Virus record (IMG/VR): IMGVR_UViG_2534681697_000017
Span: 1-19,108 of that record
DNA length: 19,108 bases
Strand: one strand, 5' to 3'
From: a virus
Lineage: Duplodnaviria > Heunggongvirae > Uroviricota > Caudoviricetes
Shown: piece by piece, positions 2,480 through 18,567 of the stretch
Layout: each line of letters starts with the position of its first letter
Position numbering within the stretch: position 1 is the first letter of the stretch
Made by a program: the position numbers and the translations under genes
The notes under the pieces: model-generated
Told to the model about the DNA's origin: nothing
The model's database searches: none
What the model saw: the letters and a program-made list of their open reading frames with translations, nothing else

Positions 2480-2782
2480 ATGAGCAGAAAAACCCAACGT
2501 TACTCTAAAGAGTTCAAAGCCGAAGCTGTCAGAACGGTTCTTGAAAATCAACTTTCGATCAGTGAAGGCGCTTCCCGATTATCCCTTCCTGAAGGCACTT
2601 TAGGACAATGGGTTACCGCCGCCAGAAAAGGGCTCGGTACTCCTGGTTCCCGCACGGTGGCTGAACTGGAATCTGAAATTCTGCAACTGCGTAAGGCGTT
2701 AAATGAAGCTCGCCTTGAGCGAGATATATTAAAAAAAGCAACAGCGTATTTTGCACAGGAGTCGCTGAAAAATACGCGTTAA
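2480..2782 (+). CDS. IS600 OrfA
   Basis: 100-aa ORF with GGAG upstream; sequence recognised as IS600 OrfA (MSRKTQRYSKEFKAEAVR...). Confidence 0.9.
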   Translation: MSRKTQRYSKEFKAEAVRTVLENQLSISEGASRLSLPEGTLGQWVTAARKGLGTPGSRTVAELESEILQLRKALNEARLERDILKKATAYFAQESLKNTR

Positions 2783-2817
2783 TCGAACAATGGCGACAAC
2801 AATTTCCCATTGAAGCG

Positions 2818-3636
2818 ATGTGTCAGGTATTTGGTGTATCCAGGAGCGGTTATTACAACTGGGTACAGCATGAACCCTCAGACAGAAAACAAAGTGATGA
2901 GCGGCTAAAACTGGAGATTAAGGTGGCACATATCCGCACTCGCGAAACATATGGAACCCGGCGGCTCCAGACGGAGCTGGCAGAGAATGGCATCATCGTT
3001 GGTCGTGACCGACTGGCACGTCTTCGTAAGGAGCTAAGGCTACGCTGTAAGCAGAAACGCAAGTTCAGAGCGACTACGAACCCGAACCACAATCTGCCAG
3101 TTGCGCCAAATCTGCTGAACCAGACGTTCGCTCCTACAGCACCAAATCAGGTCTGGGTGGCGGACCTGACGTATGTTGCCACACAGGAGGGATGGTTGTA
3201 CCTCGCTGGCATCAAAGATGTTTATACGTGCGAAATTGTCGGCTACGCCATGGGAGAGCGCATGACAAAAGAGCTGACAGGTAAAGCCCTGTTTATGGCG
3301 CTCAGGAGCCAGCGCCCACCTGCCGGGCTAATCCACCACTCTGATCGAGGTTCACAGTACTGCGCATACGATTACCGGGTCATACAGGAGCAGTTTGGTC
3401 TGAAAACATCAATGTCGCGTAAAGGTAACTGTTACGACAACGCTCCGATGGAAAGCTTCTGGGGAACGCTGAAAAATGAGAGCCTGAGCCACTATCGTTT
3501 TAATAACCGGGATGAAGCCATCTCAGTAATACGGGAATACATTGAGATTTTCTACAATCGTCAGCGTCGTCACTCTCGTCTGGGGAATATCTCCCCGGCA
3601 GCCTTCAGGGAAAAATATCATCAGATGGCTGCTTAA
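2818..3636 (+). CDS. IS600 OrfB (DDE integrase-type transposase); normally made as an OrfAB fusion by -1 frameshifting
   Basis: 272-aa ORF with an rve-type DDE core (HSDRGSQY...CYDNAPMESFWGTLK). Coordinates are from the first in-frame ATG; the frame is open upstream into the orfA overlap. Confidence 0.9.
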   Translation: MCQVFGVSRSGYYNWVQHEPSDRKQSDERLKLEIKVAHIRTRETYGTRRLQTELAENGIIVGRDRLARLRKELRLRCKQKRKFRATTNPNHNLPVAPNLLNQTFAPTAPNQVWVADLTYVATQEGWLYLAGIKDVYTCEIVGYAMGERMTKELTGKALFMALRSQRPPAGLIHHSDRGSQYCAYDYRVIQEQFGLKTSMSRKGNCYDNAPMESFWGTLKNESLSHYRFNNRDEAISVIREYIEIFYNRQRRHSRLGNISPAAFREKYHQMAA

Positions 3637-4083: not shown

Positions 4084-4551
4084 TTATTTCAGGCACTGAG
4101 TCCTGATGTACTCCTGAAGCATTCTCAATGCTGTCTGGTCGCTGATGATTCCGTCCCGGATACCGAGAACGTTTCGTCCAGCAACTGGAGAGAGTTCGAC
4201 GGTGGCATCATTGCCCATGCCGGAGGCGCTGGAGGTTTCGGCTGAGGATGGCACAGGGCATTTTCCTTTGACGAGCACCCGACCACCATTATCAAGCTTG
4301 CGCCGAAGAGCATCATTTTCAGCTTTCGCATCAGCTAACTCCTTCGTGTATTTAGCATCGAGTGCATCAGCAGCACGCTGGCGCTGCTGCATGTCAGTAA
4401 TGGTTGCGTTCGCCAGCTTCAGTTCTCTTGCGTTTTTGTCGCGCTGCTCTTTGTAGGTAATGGCGTTATCACGGTAATGATTAACAGCCCATGACAGGCG
4501 GACGATGATGCAGATAACCAGAGCGGAGATAATCGCGGTGACTCTGCTCAT
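4084..4551 (-). CDS. Rz: Rz, inner-membrane spanin (i-spanin)
   Basis: N-terminal transmembrane segment then a charged coiled-coil region; sits immediately after the endolysin with the start overlapping its stop; contains an embedded lipoprotein ORF in the +1 frame. Start taken as ATG 4551 (the listed ORF begins at GTG 4563). Confidence 0.8.
4125..4331 (-). CDS. Rz1: Rz1, outer-membrane lipoprotein spanin (o-spanin), embedded in Rz
   Basis: [19 protein letters not shown] lipoprotein signal followed by a proline-rich segment ([11 protein letters not shown]), entirely inside Rz in another frame: the classic Rz/Rz1 arrangement. Confidence 0.7.
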
Positions 4552-5021
4552 TGCTGCCCCCACAAACAGACTTCACGCTCAATCTCACGACGGGTCATCA
4601 GCCCTTTCCATTGCTTACCGCCAGCATATGTCCAGCGACGTAGCTGGTCACATGCGCCTTTGATATCGCCCTGGTTTATTTTGCGAAGAAGCGTCGATGT
4701 TCTGAAATTGCCAGCGCCCACGTTGTAAACGAACGAGTAAAGAGCGCCGCGCGTTGTTTCCGGTATATCGACTTTGATGTACGGGTTAATTTGTCTGGCG
4801 ACAGTGGCAAGGTCTTTATTCAGGAGAGCTTTGCATTCTGCTTCGGTATACGTTTTACCAGGCATGATGTCTTTTCCGGTGTGTCCGTGACATACAGTCC
4901 ATACACCAATGATATCTTTGTATGGTATGTAGCTGACACCTTCCAGACCATCGTTACCACCTGGGCCAGTGATTAACACAGATGCTATAGCAAACAGCCC
5001 CGCCACCAATAGCAACTGCAA
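4548..5021 (-). CDS. R: Phage lysozyme (P21 R-like SAR endolysin); N-terminus disrupted by a frameshift, listed ORF starts at a TTG
   Basis: [15 protein letters not shown]...[15 protein letters not shown] matches P21-type endolysin as recalled. The expected ATG (5046-5044, overlapping the S stop as TAATG) opens a different frame that stops after 30 codons ([30 protein letters not shown]). See findings. Confidence 0.7.
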
Positions 5022-6264: not shown

Positions 6265-6714
6265 TCAGAAAAACGACAGCAGGCGGTTATTCAGTTCAGG
6301 ATTGTTTGTACGCCCAAACACGTGTTTCAGCGCGGCATTAATCATTGCGTTGTAGCAACGTTCAAACTCATCCTGATCCATATTCGCGTAACTCAGGCTT
6401 TTTGCCCGATATCTCACCTCACCTCTTATGGTTGTGACCACATCATAGAACCCGGCAAGAATTGTCAGATTTTTACGAAACTCATCAAACTGCGTCGCTT
6501 CATCAGAGAATTCGTATCCGGCGTGTTCAGCACACCAGTACTGAAAGCAAAAATTAAGAAAAGCGAACATCTTCCGGTGAAAAGATGGATTACGGGTAAG
6601 ATTTGCTTCCAGCGTGTACAGCTCACCGTTTTTAAATTTTGCCAGTCGGGGTAAATCGCGTTCATACGCCGGTATAAATACGCCATTAGCAGCCTTGATC
6701 ATCTCCAGCTCCAT
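6265..6714 (-). CDS. Conserved phage protein of unknown function (149 aa)
   Basis: Intact ORF whose ATG overlaps the upstream stop (ATGA at 6711-6714); lies between the primase gene and ninG. Family assignment not secure; it does not resemble Q. Confidence 0.6.
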
Positions 6715-10329: not shown

Positions 10330-10434
10330 AGAGATCCTCCCATTTCAATTTTCCGATATTAGCTTACCTGATTTAAATGTCAATAGGCTAGCTATTTGAT
10401 AAATATTTGTGTTGCTAATAAAATTGGAGGCACT
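10330..10434. promoter_or_regulatory. cI/cro divergent intergenic control region (oR-like, pR/pRM-like)
   Basis: 105-bp AT-rich spacer between divergent repressor genes; contains an imperfect dyad TAGCTTACC...GGCTAGCTA. Operators are not individually resolved. Confidence 0.5.
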
Positions 10435-11154
10435 ATGACGAAGAAAATTACAATTACTGACAAAGACATCCAGAACGCTGAACGACTGCGCAAAATCTGG
10501 GATGAAAAACGGAAACAGCTATCCCTAAGCCAGGAAAAAGCCGCAGATATCCTCGGCTTCAAAACGCAGGGGGCTGTTAGTCAGTTATTGAACGCAAAAA
10601 TTGCGTTAAATACTGAAAATACCCTTAAGTTTGCGGCTTTATTACAGGTTCCTGCGGAAGAAATTAATCCAGATCTGAGTGATTTGTTACGCAGTATTCG
10701 TACCCACACACCGGGAAACAGGCGTAACCTGTTCGAGAAATATTACGAATATCCGTTACTCTCCTGCGTACAGGCTGGAGCTTTCTCAATGGATGATTTT
10801 TCGTACACCGCAAAGGATGCGATTAAGTGGATCTCCACCACCACAAAAGCCAGTGACAGGTCGTTCTGGCTGGAGGTCAAGGGGCATTCAATGACCGCGC
10901 CGCAGGGTGGTAAACCCAGTTTCCCCGAAGGGATGCTGATACTCGTTGACCCTGAGCGGGAGATTGAGGATGGCGATTTTTGCGTGGCCCGAATGAATGG
11001 CGATGAATTCACCTTCAAACGATTCATTCGTGAGAGCGGTAAAGCGTACCTGGAGCCACTCAACCCACGATTCGACATGATTGAGTGTAACGAAAACTGC
11101 CAGTTTGTCGGAAAGGTCATAAAGTCGCAGTGGAATGATGAGACTTTTGATTGA
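10435..11154 (+). CDS. cI: Lambda-family CI repressor (HTH plus S24 LexA-like autopeptidase domain)
   Basis: C-terminal half ([32 protein letters not shown]...[11 protein letters not shown]...[14 protein letters not shown]) closely resembles the lambda CI C-terminal domain as recalled, including an Ala-Gly site (VQAGAF). N-terminal HTH is divergent. Start at ATG 10435 with GGAGG upstream. Confidence 0.9.
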
Positions 11155-11275
11155 ACTCACAGGATGATATCAATAACCTTGCAGGGAGGCTATTTTATTT
11201 CCTTTTTCAGCGAAAAATCTCCGAGAACCCTCGCCCAATGCGGGCGGGGAGCAGTCGCAATCAAGTGAGCCATAA

Positions 11276-11446
11276 ATGAACAAAGACAAATCCTTGACAC
11301 AACAAGTGGAAGAAATACTTAGCAAGCAAAAAGTTAGCGAGCAAGGAAAAATGATTCAATCATTAAAGAACATGGGCTTGATCAACAAGCCTGTTTTTAC
11401 TTTGGCTTATGGACCAGATATTACAACCTGCCAAATGCACCAATAA
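11276..11446 (+). CDS. Small ORF (56 aa) downstream of cI, unknown function
   Basis: ATG 11276 to TAA 11444-11446, immediately followed by a strong terminator; weak ribosome-binding site; below the size cutoff of the supplied ORF track. Confidence 0.3.
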   Translation: MNKDKSLTQQVEEILSKQKVSEQGKMIQSLKNMGLINKPVFTLAYGPDITTCQMHQ

Positions 11447-11478
11447 CAAAACCCGGCCTTGGTGCCGGGTTTTGTTTG
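11447..11478. terminator. Bidirectional intrinsic terminator between the cI and hicAB transcription units
   Basis: AAAACCCGGC-CTTGGT-GCCGGGTTTT perfect 10-bp stem, flanked by T-runs on both strands. Confidence 0.7.
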
Positions 11479-11560
11479 CCTCCTGCTCACCCCACCATTT
11501 ACCAGTGCGCCGTAAATTCCCCATTCTTCGGCGGTGAGGATGTCAAAGACGAAGGGAACA

Positions 11561-11905
11561 TTAAGCCCCTGTGTGATGGTTGACTTCTTTTTCCAGCGCC
11601 TTATTAACAAAGGCGTTCAGTGATAAATCTTCTTCCATCGCCATTTCAGCGACCCGACGATGCAGTTCTGGATCAAGTCTGACGTTAAACACACCTTTAA
11701 ACGGGGTATCAGGCTCCTTTCCATCCTCCACACAAGACTGTAAATACAGCTCAACCGATGTCTTAAACTCCTGTTCCAGTTCAGCTAATGTAGAAGCCTC
11801 ATAAGTTACCAGGTCTCGAATAAACGCCAGTTTTCCGTACAGGATATTATTTTCAAAATCTGGTTCTACTGTACCTAAATATCCTTTATATTTTAGATGA
11901 TTCAT
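11561..11905 (-). CDS. hicB: HicB-family antitoxin (HicB fold plus C-terminal ribbon-helix-helix)
   Basis: ATG overlaps the hicA stop (ATGA at 11902-11905); C-terminal ELHRRVAEMAMEEDLSLNAFVNKALEKEV is RHH-like. Confidence 0.7.
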   Translation of the reverse strand: MNHLKYKGYLGTVEPDFENNILYGKLAFIRDLVTYEASTLAELEQEFKTSVELYLQSCVEDGKEPDTPFKGVFNVRLDPELHRRVAEMAMEEDLSLNAFVNKALEKEVNHHTGA

Positions 11906-12156
11906 AATACCCCAGCCTCTTTCAGATTCTGTTTAATCGCTTTCAGCGTTCCACCTTTAATATAACTTTCTGGATGTGGGCGATGCATTAATATGGTGTG
12001 GTTGATTTCAGCATTGAAAAACCGCACTCTTGAGCCCTGCATTTCCTTTTTGACATATCCCAGAGAGGAAAACAAAACGACCAACTCATCCCATTCAAAC
12101 GTTTTTTTACTGTTTAAAAACTTTTCCAGTAGCTTATCTGCTTTCCCCATACCCAC
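11902..12156 (-). CDS. hicA: HicA-family toxin (mRNA interferase)
   Basis: GSRVRF...HRPHP...IKGGTLKAIKQNLKEAG matches the HicA consensus. The listed start is GTG 12156; an alternative ATG lies at 12150. Confidence 0.7.
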   Translation of the reverse strand: MGMGKADKLLEKFLNSKKTFEWDELVVLFSSLGYVKKEMQGSRVRFFNAEINHTILMHRPHPESYIKGGTLKAIKQNLKEAGVL

Positions 12157-12305
12157 ATAATCTCATCTTCGCTACATTGCAACTAATTATAGTTACAGGC
12201 GATGTTTTTGTCAAAAGCCACCAAGCCCGCTGGGTTCTCTTTGACTGTTCACTGCTTTTCTTAGTGTTATCAGGGGGTTCCCTCACACCAAATCTAACAC
12301 AGAGT

Positions 12306-12332
12306 AACCGGCCTCAGCGCCGGTTTTTCTTT
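12306..12332 (+). terminator. Plus-strand intrinsic terminator upstream of the putative early-left promoter
   Basis: AACCGGC-CTCAGC-GCCGGTT stem followed by TTTTTCTTT; no U-run on the opposite strand. Confidence 0.55.
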
Positions 12333-12443
12333 GCGCATCCTCCATAACTCACCACCTGCATTATCCTCGCTTATATTTTTTACATAAATAAATTAATCTA
12401 AAAATCAATCACATAGATTAAAATTAAATTATCAGTCTTACTA

Positions 12444-12473
12444 TTAACTGCGATCAGTTGCGCTTATTATATT
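12444..12473 (+). promoter_or_regulatory. Candidate early-left (pL-like) promoter
   Basis: TTAACT, an 18-nt spacer, then TATATT, within a very AT-rich block; read by eye only. Confidence 0.3.
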
Positions 12474-12495
12474 TTACCCAAGCCAGAAACATCGC

Positions 12496-12565
12496 GCCCT
12501 GACACAGGGCTACATAAATCAGTCGTACGGCGCGACTTAACCCGCCGCAAAATGCTCTTTAACAA
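12496..12565 (+). promoter_or_regulatory. Antitermination-like element: boxB-like hairpin (12496-12510) plus rrn-type boxA (12553-12565)
   Basis: GCCCTGACACAGGGC has the same stem as lambda nut boxB (GCCCU...AGGGC) with a different loop; TGCTCTTTAACAA equals the E. coli rrn boxA consensus as recalled. Confidence 0.4.
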
Positions 12566-12854
12566 TCTGGAGCTTTACAGCGTCAATGACCTGTTTAGAC
12601 CCCTACACGTAAACGTGCTGTATCATCGGGTGCGATCCGGTCGATGAGAGAGTATCCCCGCGCGAGAGCGAGAACGGCGTGAGAACGGGCAACACTGGCA
12701 GGAAGTTGGCGCTGACCAATACAGGGAATGTTTTGGGGTGCAGGCGGCACCGCCAAAGCATTTCCGAGAAAGGACGATATTGACTGCGTGTGATGTCGGG
12801 GCTATATTTGGCGAACACCTCATAAAACGGGTGCCGGGATTAGCACCCCGAAAG

Positions 12855-12893
12855 TTACTCGAGCGCATAACCGCGCTGAAGCGGTTTTTTTAT
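12855..12893 (+). terminator. Putative intrinsic terminator in the leader just upstream of the Rha-like gene
   Basis: CGCATAA-CCGCGCTGAAGCGG-TTTTTTTATGCG: inner hairpin (ACCGC/GCGGT) plus T7 run, enclosed by an outer CGCATAA/TTATGCG stem. Confidence 0.4.
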
Positions 12894-13057
12894 GCGTAAT
12901 GCACAGCCACATTCAAATTATGGTGAGGCGTGCGGGGCAGCCGCAAGGCTGGCCGGGTTCTCGAGTGACCGGTAGTGCTAACCCTGTGCGTCTCACCACC
13001 CATGAGATTAGCACCTCTGGTGGTGAGTTAATTAACTTATCACTTGAGGATGTCATT

Positions 13058-13435
13058 ATGGCTACTACCCTTTCTCACCCTGACGTAACCATCGAAAATG
13101 GTCGCGCCGTCACTACTTCTATTTCGATTGCTGAGTTTTTTGGCAAGCAGCATCACCATGTTGTTCAGAAAATAGAATCCCTCGAATGCTCTGAGCAATT
13201 CTTAACCCGCAACTTTTCGCGGGTTAAATTCGAACACCGAGGCAATACCTATAACGCCTACCAAATCACCAAAAACGGCTTCGTTTTTCTGGTGATGGGC
13301 TTCACCGGCAAAAAAGCAGCTGCATTCAAGGAAGCCTACATTGCTGAATTCGATCGCATGGAAAAACAACTATGGGAACAGAAACAACTGGCCCTGTCTT
13401 CTCCTGCGATGAATATCAATTTCCCTTTATCGTAG
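13058..13435 (+). CDS. Rha-family phage regulatory protein (125 aa)
   Basis: VTTSISIAEFFGKQHHHVVQKIESL resembles the Phage_pRha motif. Start at ATG 13058 with GAGGA 7 nt upstream; the longer ORF from 12899 is rejected. Confidence 0.6.
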   Translation: MATTLSHPDVTIENGRAVTTSISIAEFFGKQHHHVVQKIESLECSEQFLTRNFSRVKFEHRGNTYNAYQITKNGFVFLVMGFTGKKAAAFKEAYIAEFDRMEKQLWEQKQLALSSPAMNINFPLS

Positions 13436-14292: not shown

Positions 14293-14574
14293 ATGAACGC
14301 ATACCTCACCTGCGACCGCATAGAGGAGCGTCGCTGGGTTAATCAGCATATTCAGGATGAAAAGGATAAATGGATTGATGATCGGGCGCAGGAGCTTATC
14401 AGCATGTTCCCCGATAAACCATTGCTTATGAGCAGCCTTTTTTTACCCAAAGAAGCCCAACTGGCACTCACTGGCGAAAAAGCTGAAGAGGCGTACAACG
14501 ATTATATCTCAGCGATCGCCTATGCTCGGGCGGAAGAAGAATGGGAGAGAAAATTCTCCCCCTGTCCTTTCTGA
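14293..14574 (+). CDS. Hypothetical protein (93 aa)
   Basis: ATG preceded by CAGGAG. Confidence 0.55.
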   Translation: MNAYLTCDRIEERRWVNQHIQDEKDKWIDDRAQELISMFPDKPLLMSSLFLPKEAQLALTGEKAEEAYNDYISAIAYARAEEEWERKFSPCPF

Positions 14575-14591
14575 TTTTCAGGACCAAAAAA

Positions 14592-15541
14592 ATGTTCGAT
14601 ATCGTTGAATTTGTTAAGCAGCAGGAGCGCTTTTTCTGCGAGGCATTAACTGAACCGACGCTGACATGGGCGAAGGAAAGTCAGTTTGCAATTCAGCAAT
14701 TCCAGAAAAATGCCTTTCTGGCTGACACAGCACGGGCAAATCTGCCCAGCGCACAGAACGCTATCATCAATGTTGCCGCCATCGGCATAACCCTGAACCC
14801 GGCCAGCAAGCTGGCGTATCTGGTCCCACGAAAAAAGGCTGTATGCCTGGATATCAGTTATATGGGGCTTCTGCATCTGGCACAGGTCACAGGAGCCATT
14901 CAGTGGGGGCAATGCAAACTTGTTTACGAGAAGGACATTTACGAGTCCAACGGTATTGACTGCGCCCCCACGCACAAATACAACCCATTCGTAGACAGGG
15001 GCGCACGCATTGGCGGTTATTGTGTCGTAAAAACATCCGAAGGCGACTATCTGACCGAAGAGATGAGCAACAGGGAAATCGAGGTCATCAGGGCGTGCAG
15101 CAAAGCCGGAAATAACGGAGGAAGTAGCCCGTGGGATAGTTTCCCCGATGAAATGGCCAGAAAAGCCATTGTAAGCGCGCCAGCAAATACTGGCCCCGTC
15201 GCGATCGCCTGGATACAGCTATCGACTACCTGAACACTCAGGCCGGTGAAGGTATCATCCTGAATGCTGATCACATCCCTGAGCGTGACGTCACTCCCGC
15301 ATCAGATGAGATTATCAATGAGATCACTCAGGCAATCACCGAAATTAACAAGACATGGGATGACCTGCTTCCCTTATGTTCCAAAACATTCCGTCGCACG
15401 ATTGCATCACATGAATATCTCAGTCAGGAAGAAGCTGTCAAAACGCTTGATTTTGTCAAAAAGAAAGCTGCCAGAAACAAGGCCACGGCGGAAGCGAAAA
15501 TTCACGCCACCACGGAAAATAGCAGCGAGGCCGTGTCATGA
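14592..15541 (+). pseudogene. recT: RecT-family single-strand annealing protein, interrupted by a -1 frameshift near 15172
   Basis: The N-terminal 213 codons (14592-15233) are RecT-like (AIGITLNPASKLAYLVPRKK...). The expected C-terminal continuation (KRASKYWPRRDRLDTAIDYLN...SEAVS) is read in the -1 frame from about 15173 to the TGA at 15539-15541, which overlaps the exonuclease start. Confidence 0.7.
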
Positions 15542-16227
15542 CACCAGAAATTATTCTCCAGCGAACTGGCGTGGATATTACCAGCCTCGACCAGGGCGAT
15601 GATGGATGGCACAAGCTGAGACTCGGTGTTATCACTGCTTCAGAAGTTCACAATGTGATAGCAAAGCCACGTTCCGGCAGCAAATGGCCTGATACAAAAA
15701 TCTCATACTTCCACACCCTGCTGGCTGAAGTTTGTACCGGCGTGGCACCGGAAGTTAACGCTAAGTCGCTCGCATGGGGAAAGCAATACGAAGATGATGC
15801 CCGTGCCATCTTCGAATTTATCGCGGATGTTACCGTCTCGGAAACGCCAATAATTTTTCGTGACGAAAGCATGCGCACCGCCTGCTCTCCCGACGGTTTA
15901 TGCAGCGACGGTAACGGCCTTGAGCTTAAATGCCCCTTCACTTCCCGCGACTTCATGAAGTTCCGGCTTGGCGGCTTTGACGCTATCAAGCCTGCTTACA
16001 TGGCCCAAGTGCAATTCAGCATGTGGGTTACAGACAAGGACGCCTGGTACTTCGCCAACTACGACCCACGCATGAAGCGTGAAGGCCTGCATTATGTCGT
16101 GGTCGAGCGGGATGAAAAGTACATGACGAGTTTTGATGAGATGGTGCCGGAGTTCATCGACAAAATGGACGAAGCACTGGCGGAAATTGGTTTTGTATTT
16201 GGAGAACAATGGGGGGTTAATAACTAA
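15538..16227 (+). CDS. YqaJ-type (lambda-exo-like) phage exonuclease, PD-(D/E)xK
   Basis: 229-aa ORF with motifs SPDGL...GLELKCP...AYMAQVQ; paired with recT upstream; GCGAGG ribosome-binding site. Confidence 0.8.
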
Positions 16228-17357: not shown

Positions 17358-18240
<883 letters not shown>

Positions 18241-18244
<4 letters not shown>

Positions 18245-18567
18245 TTTTTCCAGAGGCGGTCGAACTCCGCCTTCGCAAAATAAGCGGAAGCCTGGCGAAG
18301 GATATCGTTACTGCGGCGCAGTTCACGATTTTCACGCTCCAGCTCTTTCAGACGCTGACGTTCAGCGGTGGTGAGCCCTCCATCACCGCCCCCGGTATCC
18401 CGCTCATGCTGGCGAACCCAGACACGCAGAGTCTCCGGCGTACAGCCAATCTTTGGAGCAATGGAACAAATTGTCGCCCATTGTGAGTCATATTCGCCCT
18501 GACTTTCCAGAACCATACGGACTGCCCGTTGACGGACTTCGGGGGAAAAACGAGTATTTTTAGTCAT
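18241..18567 (-). CDS. IS629 OrfA
   Basis: 108-aa [42 protein letters not shown]... recognised from memory. Confidence 0.9.

Follow-up and report, generated by a model that had tools for sequence, protein, structure and literature searches.

A probable self-contained hicAB operon of the IncX4 plasmid lineage downstream of cI in a defective lambdoid prophage

Downstream of cI in a defective lambdoid prophage of Escherichia coli lies a pair of genes that we read from the sequence, with a probability of roughly 0.85, as a functional, self-contained type II hicAB operon. It would belong to Gerdes class 4, with a ribbon-helix-helix (RHH) HicB, and to the overlapping-ORF lineage of IncX4 plasmids, here an accessory cassette with transcription of its own, placed in the slot downstream of cI. 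The window, by which we mean the whole stretch of 19,108 nucleotides that was analysed, is a Stx-phage-like E. coli prophage that is defective: it carries IS3-family insertions, its RecT is split and the late-regulation block is missing.

In the mechanism that we propose, transcription would begin at a sigma-70 promoter (12214–12186), run leftward through hicA and then hicB, and end at a terminator at 11445–11476; these elements are seen directly, and the transcript is what they predict. Translation of hicB is probably coupled to that of hicA through an ATGA overlap of the two genes. HicB would bind and neutralise HicA by means of its N-terminal partial RNase H-like domain, as can be expected from an IncX4 pair whose two proteins are 96% and 95% identical to those described here, and an RHH dimer of HicB seated on an 8-4-8 palindrome over the -10 hexamer would repress the operon, as the conservation of that palindrome suggests. 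HicA that is free of its partner would arrest growth, most likely as a ribosome-independent RNase like other HicAs.

Assignment of HicA and HicB

The toxin gene hicA (11902–12150, minus strand) encodes 82 aa and the antitoxin gene hicB (11561–11905, minus strand) 114 aa. The first-pass annotation of this DNA had named the pair as hicA and hicB, overlapping by ATGA, and had ascribed to HicA an N-terminal extension of roughly 20 residues; all of this stands. The overlap is 4 nt long (11902–11905), with the ATG of hicB running into the TGA of hicA. In profile searches, the check set beforehand for the family assignment, both proteins score above the curated cut-offs. HicA matches the Pfam family HicA_toxin (PF07927) with 45 bits against a cut-off of 27 (E 1.2e-11, profile positions 1–58 of 58) and phrog_8887, "toxin", end to end at 9e-35. 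HicB matches PF05534 with 71 bits against a cut-off of 21 and phrog_9151, "HicB-like antitoxin", end to end at 1.5e-50; PF15919 (HicB_lk_antitox) gives no match to HicB at E<=0.01. At the level of identity, all 82 residues of HicA agree with RefSeq WP_000513533.1, a protein that carries the HicA annotation in nearly identical E. coli prophages, and HicB agrees at 112–113 of 114 with WP_000681611.1.

Predicted structures are consistent with these assignments. For the AlphaFold model of HicA (pLDDT 90.4), the best PDB matches found by Foldseek are 1WHZ, 6G26_E/F and 4C26, with a probability of 0.72–1.00, a target-normalised TM of 0.59–0.72 and an rmsd of 2.4–2.8 over 58–67 columns. The model of HicB (pLDDT 87) combines an N-terminal HicB fold with a C-terminal RHH region. 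Its N-domain, with strands within residues 4–37 and a helix at 40–60, adopts a partial RNase H-like fold (beta-beta-beta-alpha-beta), and the top Foldseek matches are 6G26_A/B, 2DSY and 6G1C (probability 0.91–1.00). At the C-terminus, an extended segment is followed by helices 79–91 and 96–112 in a helix-turn-helix-like arrangement; residues 72–112 match Arc-like repressor PHROGs, the CopG RHH structure 9KKD and YlcI/YnfO.

That both reading frames arose by chance, or that the proteins have been assigned to the wrong family, could be argued from searches of the PDB with single sequences, which return no HicA match for HicA and only weak RHH matches for HicB, and from Foldseek E-values that reach only about 1e-2 for both proteins. 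Single-sequence PDB searches are, however, poor for this pair, so that profiles and a fold search were needed. The evidence of profile, fold, conservation and selection already refutes the idea, and with 1526 further cluster representatives matching the HicA profile at E<=1e-3, we give it next to no chance of being right. When compared with the IncX4 copy, at a dS of 0.25–0.30, dN/dS is 0.04 for hicB and 0.06 for hicA, the latter indicating strong purifying selection on the toxin.

Taken from a GTG at 12156, the ORF of hicA spans 11902–12156 (84 aa). We consider this in-frame start less likely and reject it, preferring the ATG at 12150: it is the start annotated in RefSeq, homologues open with M-G-K from it, and the IncX4 copy lacks the in-frame extension of the reading frame. 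The Pfam match spans residues 22–83 of the 84-aa ORF, leaving some 20 residues ahead of the conserved core, and in the AlphaFold model these form a helix (3–13) and a short strand (17–19). The whole HicA subfamily shares this N-terminal extension.

Promoter, operator and expression

The hicAB promoter (12186–12214, minus strand), identified by a promoter scan, is a perfect sigma-70 consensus, TTGACA-17 nt-TATAAT, with matches at 12 of 12 positions. Its -35 element is invariant as TTGAC in the homologous loci of IncX4 plasmids, Salmonella and Photorhabdus. Overlapping the -10 hexamer and centred on it is an inverted repeat, TGTAACTA-TAAT-TAGTTGCA (12178–12197, minus strand; 8-4-8 with one mismatch), which is the probable operator for HicB. 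The palindrome emerged from reading the sequence and from alignment across loci, as a generic inverted-repeat finder missed it because the arms are only 8 nt each. These arms are conserved across loci in which the flanks and the 4-nt spacer have diverged, and are perfect in two of them (L004 and L009).

The Shine-Dalgarno of hicB (GAGG/GGGG) sits within the 3′ end of hicA. It is better than that of hicA, and together with the ATGA coupling would favour an excess of antitoxin. The leader of the prophage hicA lacks a good Shine-Dalgarno and contains an out-of-frame upstream ATG, so the output of HicA may be very low. On the minus strand, a terminator scan returned nothing terminator-like from 11905 to 12156. 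The internal hicA terminator of the IncI2 "HicA-T-B" subfamily was looked for and is absent, and the regulatory model of that subfamily is therefore inapplicable here. With hicA first, an RHH HicB, overlapping ORFs and no intergenic terminator, the pair fits class 4 as defined by Gerdes (PMC10865869) and the "HicA-O-B" type as defined by Lin et al. (PMC11878559).

Relatives in prophages, plasmids and chromosomes

Lambdoid prophages of E. coli, among them those of strain 48 (an stx1c prophage) and 2015C-3121, match the locus at 98–99% nucleotide identity. The prophage relatives in RefSeq share the order cro, cI, orf56, hicB-hicA, then onward to gam, recT and exo, and show essentially no difference at the hicAB pair. 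To the right of the slot the window has an isrK RNA, a C4 RNA and the Rha gene, whereas the corresponding block of strain 48 carries a hypothetical protein and AntA/AntB.

The "HicA-O-B" pair of IncX4 plasmids (pJIE143, p14EC007a and pCSZ4) is about 90% identical in nucleotide sequence over 11545–12216, a similarity that takes in the -35, the -10 and the palindrome. HicA is identical at 79 of 82 positions (96%) to WP_000520549.1 of p14EC007a, the differences being A4T, E9A and V81L, and HicB at 109 of 115 (95%) to WP_000681613.1. The plasmid pair resembles that of the prophage in its overlapping ORFs and in having no internal terminator. It differs in being carried on a conjugative plasmid and not in a prophage, in lacking both orf56 and the flanking slot terminators, and in its leader, which has a better Shine-Dalgarno and is without the 8-nt insertion that contains the out-of-frame ATG in the prophage. 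In E. coli, the p14EC007a pair was found to be toxic and fully neutralised (Lin et al. 2025, Fig. 5D, PMC11878559); the same work reports only a slight advantage in plasmid competition for the IncX4 pair. On IncX4 plasmids the overlapping-ORF lineage is the dominant one. The combination of an 82-aa and a 114/115-aa protein with a 4-nt overlap is retained in the Salmonella and Photorhabdus loci.

The "hif-contiguous" HicAB of Haemophilus influenzae, with which the family was founded, is a chromosomal locus beside a pilus gene cluster; its HicB (Q9LA69) is 61% identical over 95%, is also 114 aa long and also belongs to PF05534. Identity falls to about 20% for the HicABs with solved structures, those of Burkholderia pseudomallei (6G26/4C26), Yersinia pestis (HicA3B3, 4P78) and Streptococcus pneumoniae (5YRZ); the structurally characterised HicAB of E. 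coli K-12 did not come up in our searches. The dsRBD-like core of HicA, the toxin gene in first place, the P-H-P histidine, and a HicB made of a partial RNase H-like N-domain and a DNA-binding C-domain are common to them and to the present pair. The present clade differs from them by an added N-terminal helix and strand, by arginine in place of histidine in G-S-H, and by an additional, nearly invariant histidine three residues before that of P-H-P.

An arginine at the position of the catalytic histidine

In characterised HicAs the catalytic histidine is that of a G-S-H motif, H24 in B. pseudomallei, H36 in S. pneumoniae and H23 in E. coli; in Y. pestis HicA3 it is reportedly H28. The importance of this residue is stated in a review (PMC11594946). 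Profile alignments to 4C26/6G26, 5YRZ and 4P78 place Arg41 of the present toxin at this position. Among 106 representatives of the subfamily, position 41 is Arg in 93 and His in a single one; His59, the counterpart of the P-H-P histidine in the B. pseudomallei toxin, is invariant (106/106), and His56 is kept in 105. A predicted beta-hairpin pairs His56 across from position 41. Given Arg41 at the canonical position, RNase chemistry identical to that of the studied HicAs cannot be assumed, and in the HicA literature that we examined no biochemical data on RNA cleavage were found for the G-S-R / H-x-P-H-P clade.

One interpretation of Arg41 is that HicA is catalytically dead, or is not an RNase, and that the module is decaying or has been repurposed. 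An arginine where three solved HicAs have an essential histidine would fit this, as would the state of the host prophage, with its IS3-family insertions, split RecT and lost late-regulation block. However, arginine at position 41 is the rule of the subfamily, accompanied by the nearly invariant His56 and His59, and so is not a lesion of the present copy. Moreover, a 96% identical HicA that also carries GSR is toxic in E. coli, the three substitutions that separate the two proteins (A4T, E9A and V81L) fall outside the conserved motifs, and the dN/dS of 0.06 reflects strong purifying selection. We therefore regard a dead toxin as very improbable, and continue to read the present HicA as a functional one.

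More speculative is the idea that the extended clade with G-S-R…H-x-P-H-P, which includes the present toxin and that of IncX4 plasmids, and in which the extended toxins of phages mEp234 and HK106 are also grouped, may have relocated its catalytic histidine to His56, possibly together with His59. Its active-site geometry or its specificity in RNA cleavage may then differ from those of all characterised HicAs, and the clade may act as an abortive-infection module in the hot spot next to cI. We put this forward tentatively, as an unlikely extension of the data.

The slot downstream of cI

cI lies on the plus strand. Its ORF, taken from a TTG start, spans 10396–11154 and encodes an S24 peptidase plus HTH; the product starts at the ATG at 10432 (MTKKITI), as RefSeq annotates a 720-nt homologue. 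With both hic ORFs on the minus strand, the pair is convergent with cI. This opposite orientation had been noted in the first-pass annotation, as had a bidirectional terminator shared by the two sides (given as 11447–11478) and a plus-strand terminator beyond the pair (12306–12332), and each of these observations was confirmed. The shared element is an intrinsic terminator that folds on both strands, with a 13-bp stem at 11445–11476 and symmetric A/T tracts. It folds with -23.2 kcal/mol (z = -4.2) on the plus strand and with -24.5 kcal/mol (z = -3.9) on the minus strand, and none of 200 shuffles folds equally well. From its sequence, it appears to serve both a cI/orf56 transcript on the plus strand and the hicAB transcript on the minus strand. 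The plus-strand terminator, recovered by terminator scan and fold, has its stem at 12306–12325 and a T tract reaching to about 12332.

This second stem closes a plus-strand segment (12246–12332) that opens with an apparent leftover of the slot's past: 12246–12305 reads as the 3′ end of the ancestral last gene. The tract 12245–12500 is 92% identical to phage Lyz12581Vzw and related Stx2a phages, and in alignments with Lyz12581Vzw and strain KY204, the partner of a Panacea-domain gene ends with a TAA that abuts the same hairpin. The plus-strand terminator marks where the slot ended ancestrally and forms its conserved right-hand boundary; it is not a component of hicAB. Other cargo fills the slot in relatives: a methyltransferase and BsuBI restriction enzyme together with a Panacea-domain pair in one case, an SDH protease in another, and in a third a Panacea-domain pair accompanied by a transmembrane protein. 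In these prophages, the position beside cI is a hot spot for cargo.

A further small gene, orf56 (11276–11446, plus strand; 56 aa), overlooked at first pass, lies between cI and the shared terminator and is co-directional with cI. It matches phrog_28875 (function unknown) at 1e-30 and is annotated as a hypothetical protein beside hicAB in relatives. It is absent from the KY204 prophage; the IncX4 copies, which align with the window only from 11545 onward, downstream of orf56, lack it as well, and a tblastn search of the phage collection gave no match. ArgR-like Pfam/NCBIfam matches (E 0.003–0.007, far below the cut-offs) were treated as noise. orf56 is a neighbour of hicAB within a prophage-specific cassette (about 11263–12333), and is not demonstrably part of the toxin-antitoxin pair.

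In lambda, the slot adjacent to cI carries rexAB, a membrane-depolarising exclusion system that is co-transcribed with cI. The first-pass annotation had read hicAB as occupying this slot. Synteny favours that reading, as does the precedent of mEp234 and HK106 (EF120460 and EF120461, which presumably date to 2007), where hicAB lies between cI and Timm/oL/pL, in the place of rexAB. The parallel fails for transcription, the pair here being convergent and not co-transcribed with cI. Map position by cI and presumed expression in the lysogen are what hicAB and rexAB have in common; there is no relationship in sequence or fold, as searches of Pfam, NCBIfam and PHROG yield no families other than HicA/HicB and RHH. 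The HicA of mEp234/HK106 belongs to the same subfamily as ours, having the N-terminal extension, GSG at G-S-x and an H-E-P-H-P motif, at 35% identity; HicB is 43% identical and is 152 aa long there. In those phages hicA-hicB-orf is co-oriented with cI and ends at Timm, and could thus be read from pRM like rexAB, whereas the present pair runs the other way, with a promoter of its own, and the bidirectional terminator insulates it.

An early-left promoter region had also been placed to the right of the pair. It could not be located, because no plausible oL/pL operator repeats were found: the cro/cI intergenic region and 12157–12900 have no 11-mers in common, and the sole 12-mer matches with up to two mismatches, two overlapping reverse-complement ones (10325/10326 versus 12233/12234), are implausible as an operator.

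Role of the operon

Most likely, hicAB is a selfish cassette travelling between plasmids and prophages, whose contribution to element retention or competition is modest at best. It may have a part in abortive infection, and the suggestion of phage exclusion or prophage stabilisation made at first pass is a guess.

A rival explanation holds that the operon acts mainly in abortive infection or phage exclusion on behalf of the lysogen, as an analogue of rexAB, HicA being freed when a phage stops host transcription. The slot lends itself to this view, carrying as it does restriction-modification and Panacea-domain pairs in relatives and rexAB in lambda, and in mEp234 and HK106 hicAB stands exactly in the place of rexAB. 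A consensus promoter of constitutive type would, moreover, keep hicAB expressed in the lysogen, and Gerdes (2024) makes a case, based on genetic contexts, for anti-phage defence by HicA domains (PMC10865869). However, a 2024 review (PMC11594946) treats the defence role as a proposal drawn from genetic contexts, and both HicABs whose defence was tested in the literature that we examined showed none. Deletion of the IncI2-type hicAB of plasmid p45, a pair of the HicA-T-B subfamily that is less than 26% identical to the present lineage, left resistance to lytic coliphages unchanged, and the prophage HicAB2 of Pseudomonas putida gave no defence against the phages tested; P. putida prophage HicAB was also without effect on prophage stability. 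No PADLOC model matches, in that PADLOC-DB 2.0 returns no defence family at E<=0.01 for HicA, HicB or orf56. The distribution of the cassette also speaks against a primary role in the lysogen, as across 5426 E. coli genomes it occurs at 465 places on conjugative plasmids and at only 12 on chromosomes. We consider a main function in exclusion possible but doubtful, and retain the selfish cassette as the most likely role.

Significance

The hicAB pair as such is already known, as it is routinely annotated and its closest relative has been tested experimentally, and the presence of hicAB in the lambdoid rexAB slot is already annotated in EF120460 and EF120461. The details that are new here are the promoter, the palindrome, the dN/dS values, Arg41 with His56/His59, the subfamily-wide extension and the cargo of the slot.

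Taken with the plasmid copies, the prophage locus indicates that a single lineage of hicAB travels, together with its promoter and putative operator, between prophages of the Stx type and IncX4 resistance plasmids. The cI-adjacent slot could be mined for defence genes. Within the HicA family there is a large clade, with about 1500 cluster representatives that match the profile, in which the histidine regarded in the literature as a conserved catalytic residue is missing, so that the usual account of how HicA works may not extend to this clade.

The prophage and its hicAB pair

The window carries a lambdoid prophage whose orientation is reversed relative to the lambda map. A cro-like HTH gene, a DEAD-box helicase gene and a primase-like replication module lie on the minus strand, and RecT, a YqaJ-type exonuclease and Ea22 lie on the plus strand beyond cI, together with a homologue of RefSeq-annotated gamL (14293–14574, plus strand, 93 aa) that has no Pfam match. 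The prophage looks defective. There are two IS3-family elements with HTH_Tnp_1 and rve ORFs (2480–3636, plus strand, and 17358–18567, minus strand), the right-hand one with an ALIL frameshifting pseudoknot at 18170–18286 (115.7 bits); RecT is split into two plus-strand ORFs (14541–15233 and 15264–15602), which suggests a frameshift; and only about 1.2 kb separates the lysozyme gene (4548–5021, minus strand) from DUF1367 (6265–6714), an interval where the related strain 48 prophage carries NinG, NinH, Q, stx1c and more.

The cI gene, with S24 peptidase and HTH domains, lies within ORF 10396–11154 on the plus strand. Beyond it are two minus-strand ORFs that overlap by ATGA and are thus convergent with cI. 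The upstream ORF, hicA (11902–12156; 84 aa from GTG, or 82 aa if translation starts at the ATG at 12150), matches Pfam HicA_toxin with 45 bits against a cut-off of 27, and its product matches a PHROGs "toxin" family over its full length (9e-35). The downstream ORF, hicB (11561–11905; 114 aa), matches Pfam HicB (PF05534) with 71 bits against a cut-off of 21 and, again at full length, the PHROGs "HicB-like antitoxin" family (1.5e-50), with PHROGs matches to Arc-like repressors at residues 72–111. The first-pass annotation had described exactly such an overlapping hicAB pair opposite to cI; the observation is confirmed, and its reading of the pair is supported. The pair is already known, being annotated in RefSeq, and is a classical class 4 module in Gerdes's scheme, that is, hicAB with an RHH-type HicB. 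Two database proteins, P0225 (182 aa) and P0301 (168 aa), carry PF07927 (HicA) and PF05534 in a single polypeptide; these are either HicA-HicB fusions of the subfamily, like Gerdes's classes 11–13, or gene-calling read-through of the ATGA overlap.

Near-identical copies and a tested relative

Of 5426 complete E. coli genomes searched by megablast, a few have the order cI-orf56-hicB-hicA on the chromosome, with about 98% identity; orf56 is a small ORF next to cI, and the genes matching the pair carry the RefSeq label of type II HicA and HicB. HicA of the window is identical to WP_000513533.1 (82/82) and HicB nearly so to WP_000681611.1 (113/114). The core of the cassette (11545–12216) is also about 90% identical to one that hundreds of conjugative plasmids carry, most of them IncX4, with matches to 792 PLSDB records and, in the E. 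coli genomes, 465 plasmid places versus 12 chromosomal ones. Comparison of the prophage copy with the IncX4 copy gives a dN/dS of 0.06 for hicA, with 11 synonymous and 3 non-synonymous changes, and of 0.04 for hicB (dS 0.25–0.30), which shows strong purifying selection on both.

Among these relatives, p14EC007a encodes WP_000520549.1 and WP_000681613.1, which are identical to the window proteins at 79/82 and 109/115 positions. Its HicA is toxic in E. coli K-12 and is fully neutralised by its HicB (Lin et al. 2025, PMC11878559). Homology to this tested pair shows the window proteins to be a probable toxin and antitoxin. The same work names the overlapping-ORF, terminator-less hicAB lineage HicA-O-B and reports that it confers only a slight advantage in plasmid competition (PMC11878559).

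Expression signals

The minus strand has a perfect TTGACA-17-TATAAT directly upstream of hicA (12214–12186), picked up by the promoter scan; by our own arithmetic, chance alone would give about 7e-4 such 12/12 matches with 16–18 nt spacing in 1.9 kb, counting both strands. An inverted repeat, TGTAACTA-TAAT-TAGTTGCA (12178–12197), is centred on the −10 element. We compared by alignment the upstream region of the window with those of a prophage variant (94% identical), an IncX4 plasmid, two Salmonella-type loci and two Photorhabdus loci (HicA 71–76% identical). The −35 core TTGAC is invariant and the palindrome arms nearly so (perfect in the compared loci L004 and L009, with one mismatch in the window and IncX4 copies, the Salmonella-type loci and L010), whereas the loci differ in the spacer, in the flanks and even in the −10. 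This pattern fits a putative operator bound by a HicB RHH dimer, through which hicAB would be autorepressed.

The terminator scan gives no terminator-like site between hicA and hicB. Besides the overlap, hicB has a Shine-Dalgarno sequence (GAGG/GGGG) within the hicA 3′ end, whereas no good one precedes hicA in the prophage copies. Relative to the IncX4 plasmids, the hicA leader of these copies (12150–12178, minus strand) carries an 8-nt insertion, ATGTGGGT, which creates an out-of-frame upstream ATG opening a short frame, of about 14 codons as read from the sequence, and puts a weak Shine-Dalgarno sequence in place of the plasmid's AGGGGA. The insertion may lower translation of the toxin. As a whole, the translation signals favour the antitoxin, which would be made in excess over HicA.

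The protein models and a possibly displaced active-site histidine

The AlphaFold model of HicB (pLDDT 87) has an N-terminal sheet with a long helix and a C-terminal RHH-like helix pair. Among PDB entries it is closest to B. pseudomallei HicB (6G26 A/B, 6G1C) and TTHA0281 (2DSY), and the window HicB shares 61% identity with the founding HicB of H. influenzae. The HicA model (pLDDT 90.4) is closest to the HicA structures 1WHZ, 6G26 chains E and F, and 4C26. The N-terminal extension noted in the first pass is visible as a helix (3–13) and a short strand (17–19) preceding the alpha-beta-beta-beta-alpha core. Searching 1.84 billion cluster representatives with a profile gave 1526 relatives at E<=1e-3, of which 252 reach E<=1e-10; the majority of the best 150 measure 80–92 aa and align end to end, so the extension is common among relatives and not peculiar to this copy.

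In profile alignments, Arg41 of HicA occupies the catalytic-histidine position of three solved HicAs, namely the G-S-H of S. pneumoniae HicA and of Y. pestis HicA3, and the H24A site of B. pseudomallei 4C26. A 2024 review regards the G-S-H histidine as catalytic and conserved among characterised HicAs (PMC11594946). Within the subfamily this position is Arg in 93/106 representatives and His in 1/106, and an H-x-P-H-P motif is nearly invariant (His56 in 105/106, His59 in 106/106). Strands 41–46 and 51–56 of the model form a hairpin, and residue 56 is thus expected to lie opposite residue 41, which suggests that the catalytic histidine of this clade may have been relocated. Since the IncX4 HicA shares the GSR motif and its toxicity is shown, the GSR clade is active, and HicA would presumably act as an RNase.

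The slot downstream of cI

In lambda, rexAB occupies the place between cI and Timm/oL/pL. The analogy in position drawn by the first-pass annotation is right and already documented: GenBank EF120460 has hicA-hicB-orf at exactly this place, co-oriented with cI, and tblastn of phage records finds HicA genes of the same subfamily in the lambda-immunity phages mEp234, HK106 and mEp506, the mEp234 protein being 35% identical to window HicA with GSG and HEPHP motifs. In contrast to EF120460, the pair in the window is turned against cI and has a promoter of its own, with the proposed shared terminator as insulation. This hairpin (11445–11476) has a 13-bp stem with symmetric A/T tracts. Its folding energies for the two strands are −23.2 and −24.5 kcal/mol, with 0/200 shuffles as stable, and it makes a credible bidirectional terminator.

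The first pass had not mentioned orf56, a 56-aa plus-strand ORF (11276–11446) directly downstream of cI and ending at this terminator. It matches phrog_28875, a family without assigned function, is 55–56/56 identical in two translated relatives (strains 48 and 2015C-3121), and is spanned by megablast matches in six more chromosomal copies; it is not in the KY204 variant or in IncX4 plasmids, and tblastn found no match in the phage collection. Lambda rexA is co-transcribed with cI, and in the window orf56 is the gene so placed that it could be likewise.

The cargo of the slot varies among Stx-type prophages (slot regions L003 616–4066, which is phage Lyz12581Vzw, L002 3770–5184 and L004 4143–6048). 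In Lyz12581Vzw, a methyltransferase and a BsuBI-type restriction enzyme accompany a Panacea-domain pair; in strain 2015C-3121, orf56 and hicAB occur with a transmembrane protein and an SDH protease (Clp-fold); and strain KY204 has a transmembrane protein, hicAB and the Panacea-domain pair. We regard the slot as a candidate defence and accessory hot spot.

The plus-strand terminator reported beyond the pair is real by scan and fold (stem 12306–12325, then a T tract). The preceding 60 nt (12246–12305) align to the last 60 nt of the gene after the Panacea-domain gene in Lyz12581Vzw and KY204, whose TAA stop abuts the same hairpin, and 12246–12332 is therefore an orphaned remnant outside hicAB. 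By this comparison the terminator is the conserved ancestral right boundary of the slot, and the remnant indicates replacement of cargo through deletion or recombination.

The early-left promoter region that the first pass had placed beyond the pair was not located, because we found neither an N gene right of the slot nor operator repeats common to that region and the cro/cI intergenic region. The best plus-strand promoter-like site, TTGACT-17-TATATT (12780–12808), lies directly upstream of an isrK Hfq-binding RNA (12815–12891, 61.6 bits) with its terminator at 12869–12886; a C4 antisense RNA (12916–13003, 78.6 bits) and a Rha-family gene within ORF 12899–13435 follow, all on the plus strand and both RNAs at Rfam gathering level. 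A Pfam "Phage_ASH" match to residues 5–60 of this ORF overlaps the C4 RNA, and the true Rha start is therefore probably the ATG near 13049. The segment 12780–13435 looks like a P1/Gifsy-type RNA-controlled antirepressor module.

Biological role

We regard abortive infection as a serious but less likely role of hicAB. A defence role of HicA has been proposed from genomic contexts (PMC10865869), but PADLOC has no model matching the pair, deletion of hicAB from an IncI2 plasmid left sensitivity to lytic coliphages unchanged in a published test, and a functional P. putida prophage HicAB had no effect on prophage stability or on defence against the phages tested. Most likely, the pair is a mobile, selfish cassette whose effects on retention or competition are modest. 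The residual interest of the locus lies in the cargo hot spot adjoining cI and in the non-canonical active site of a large HicA clade.
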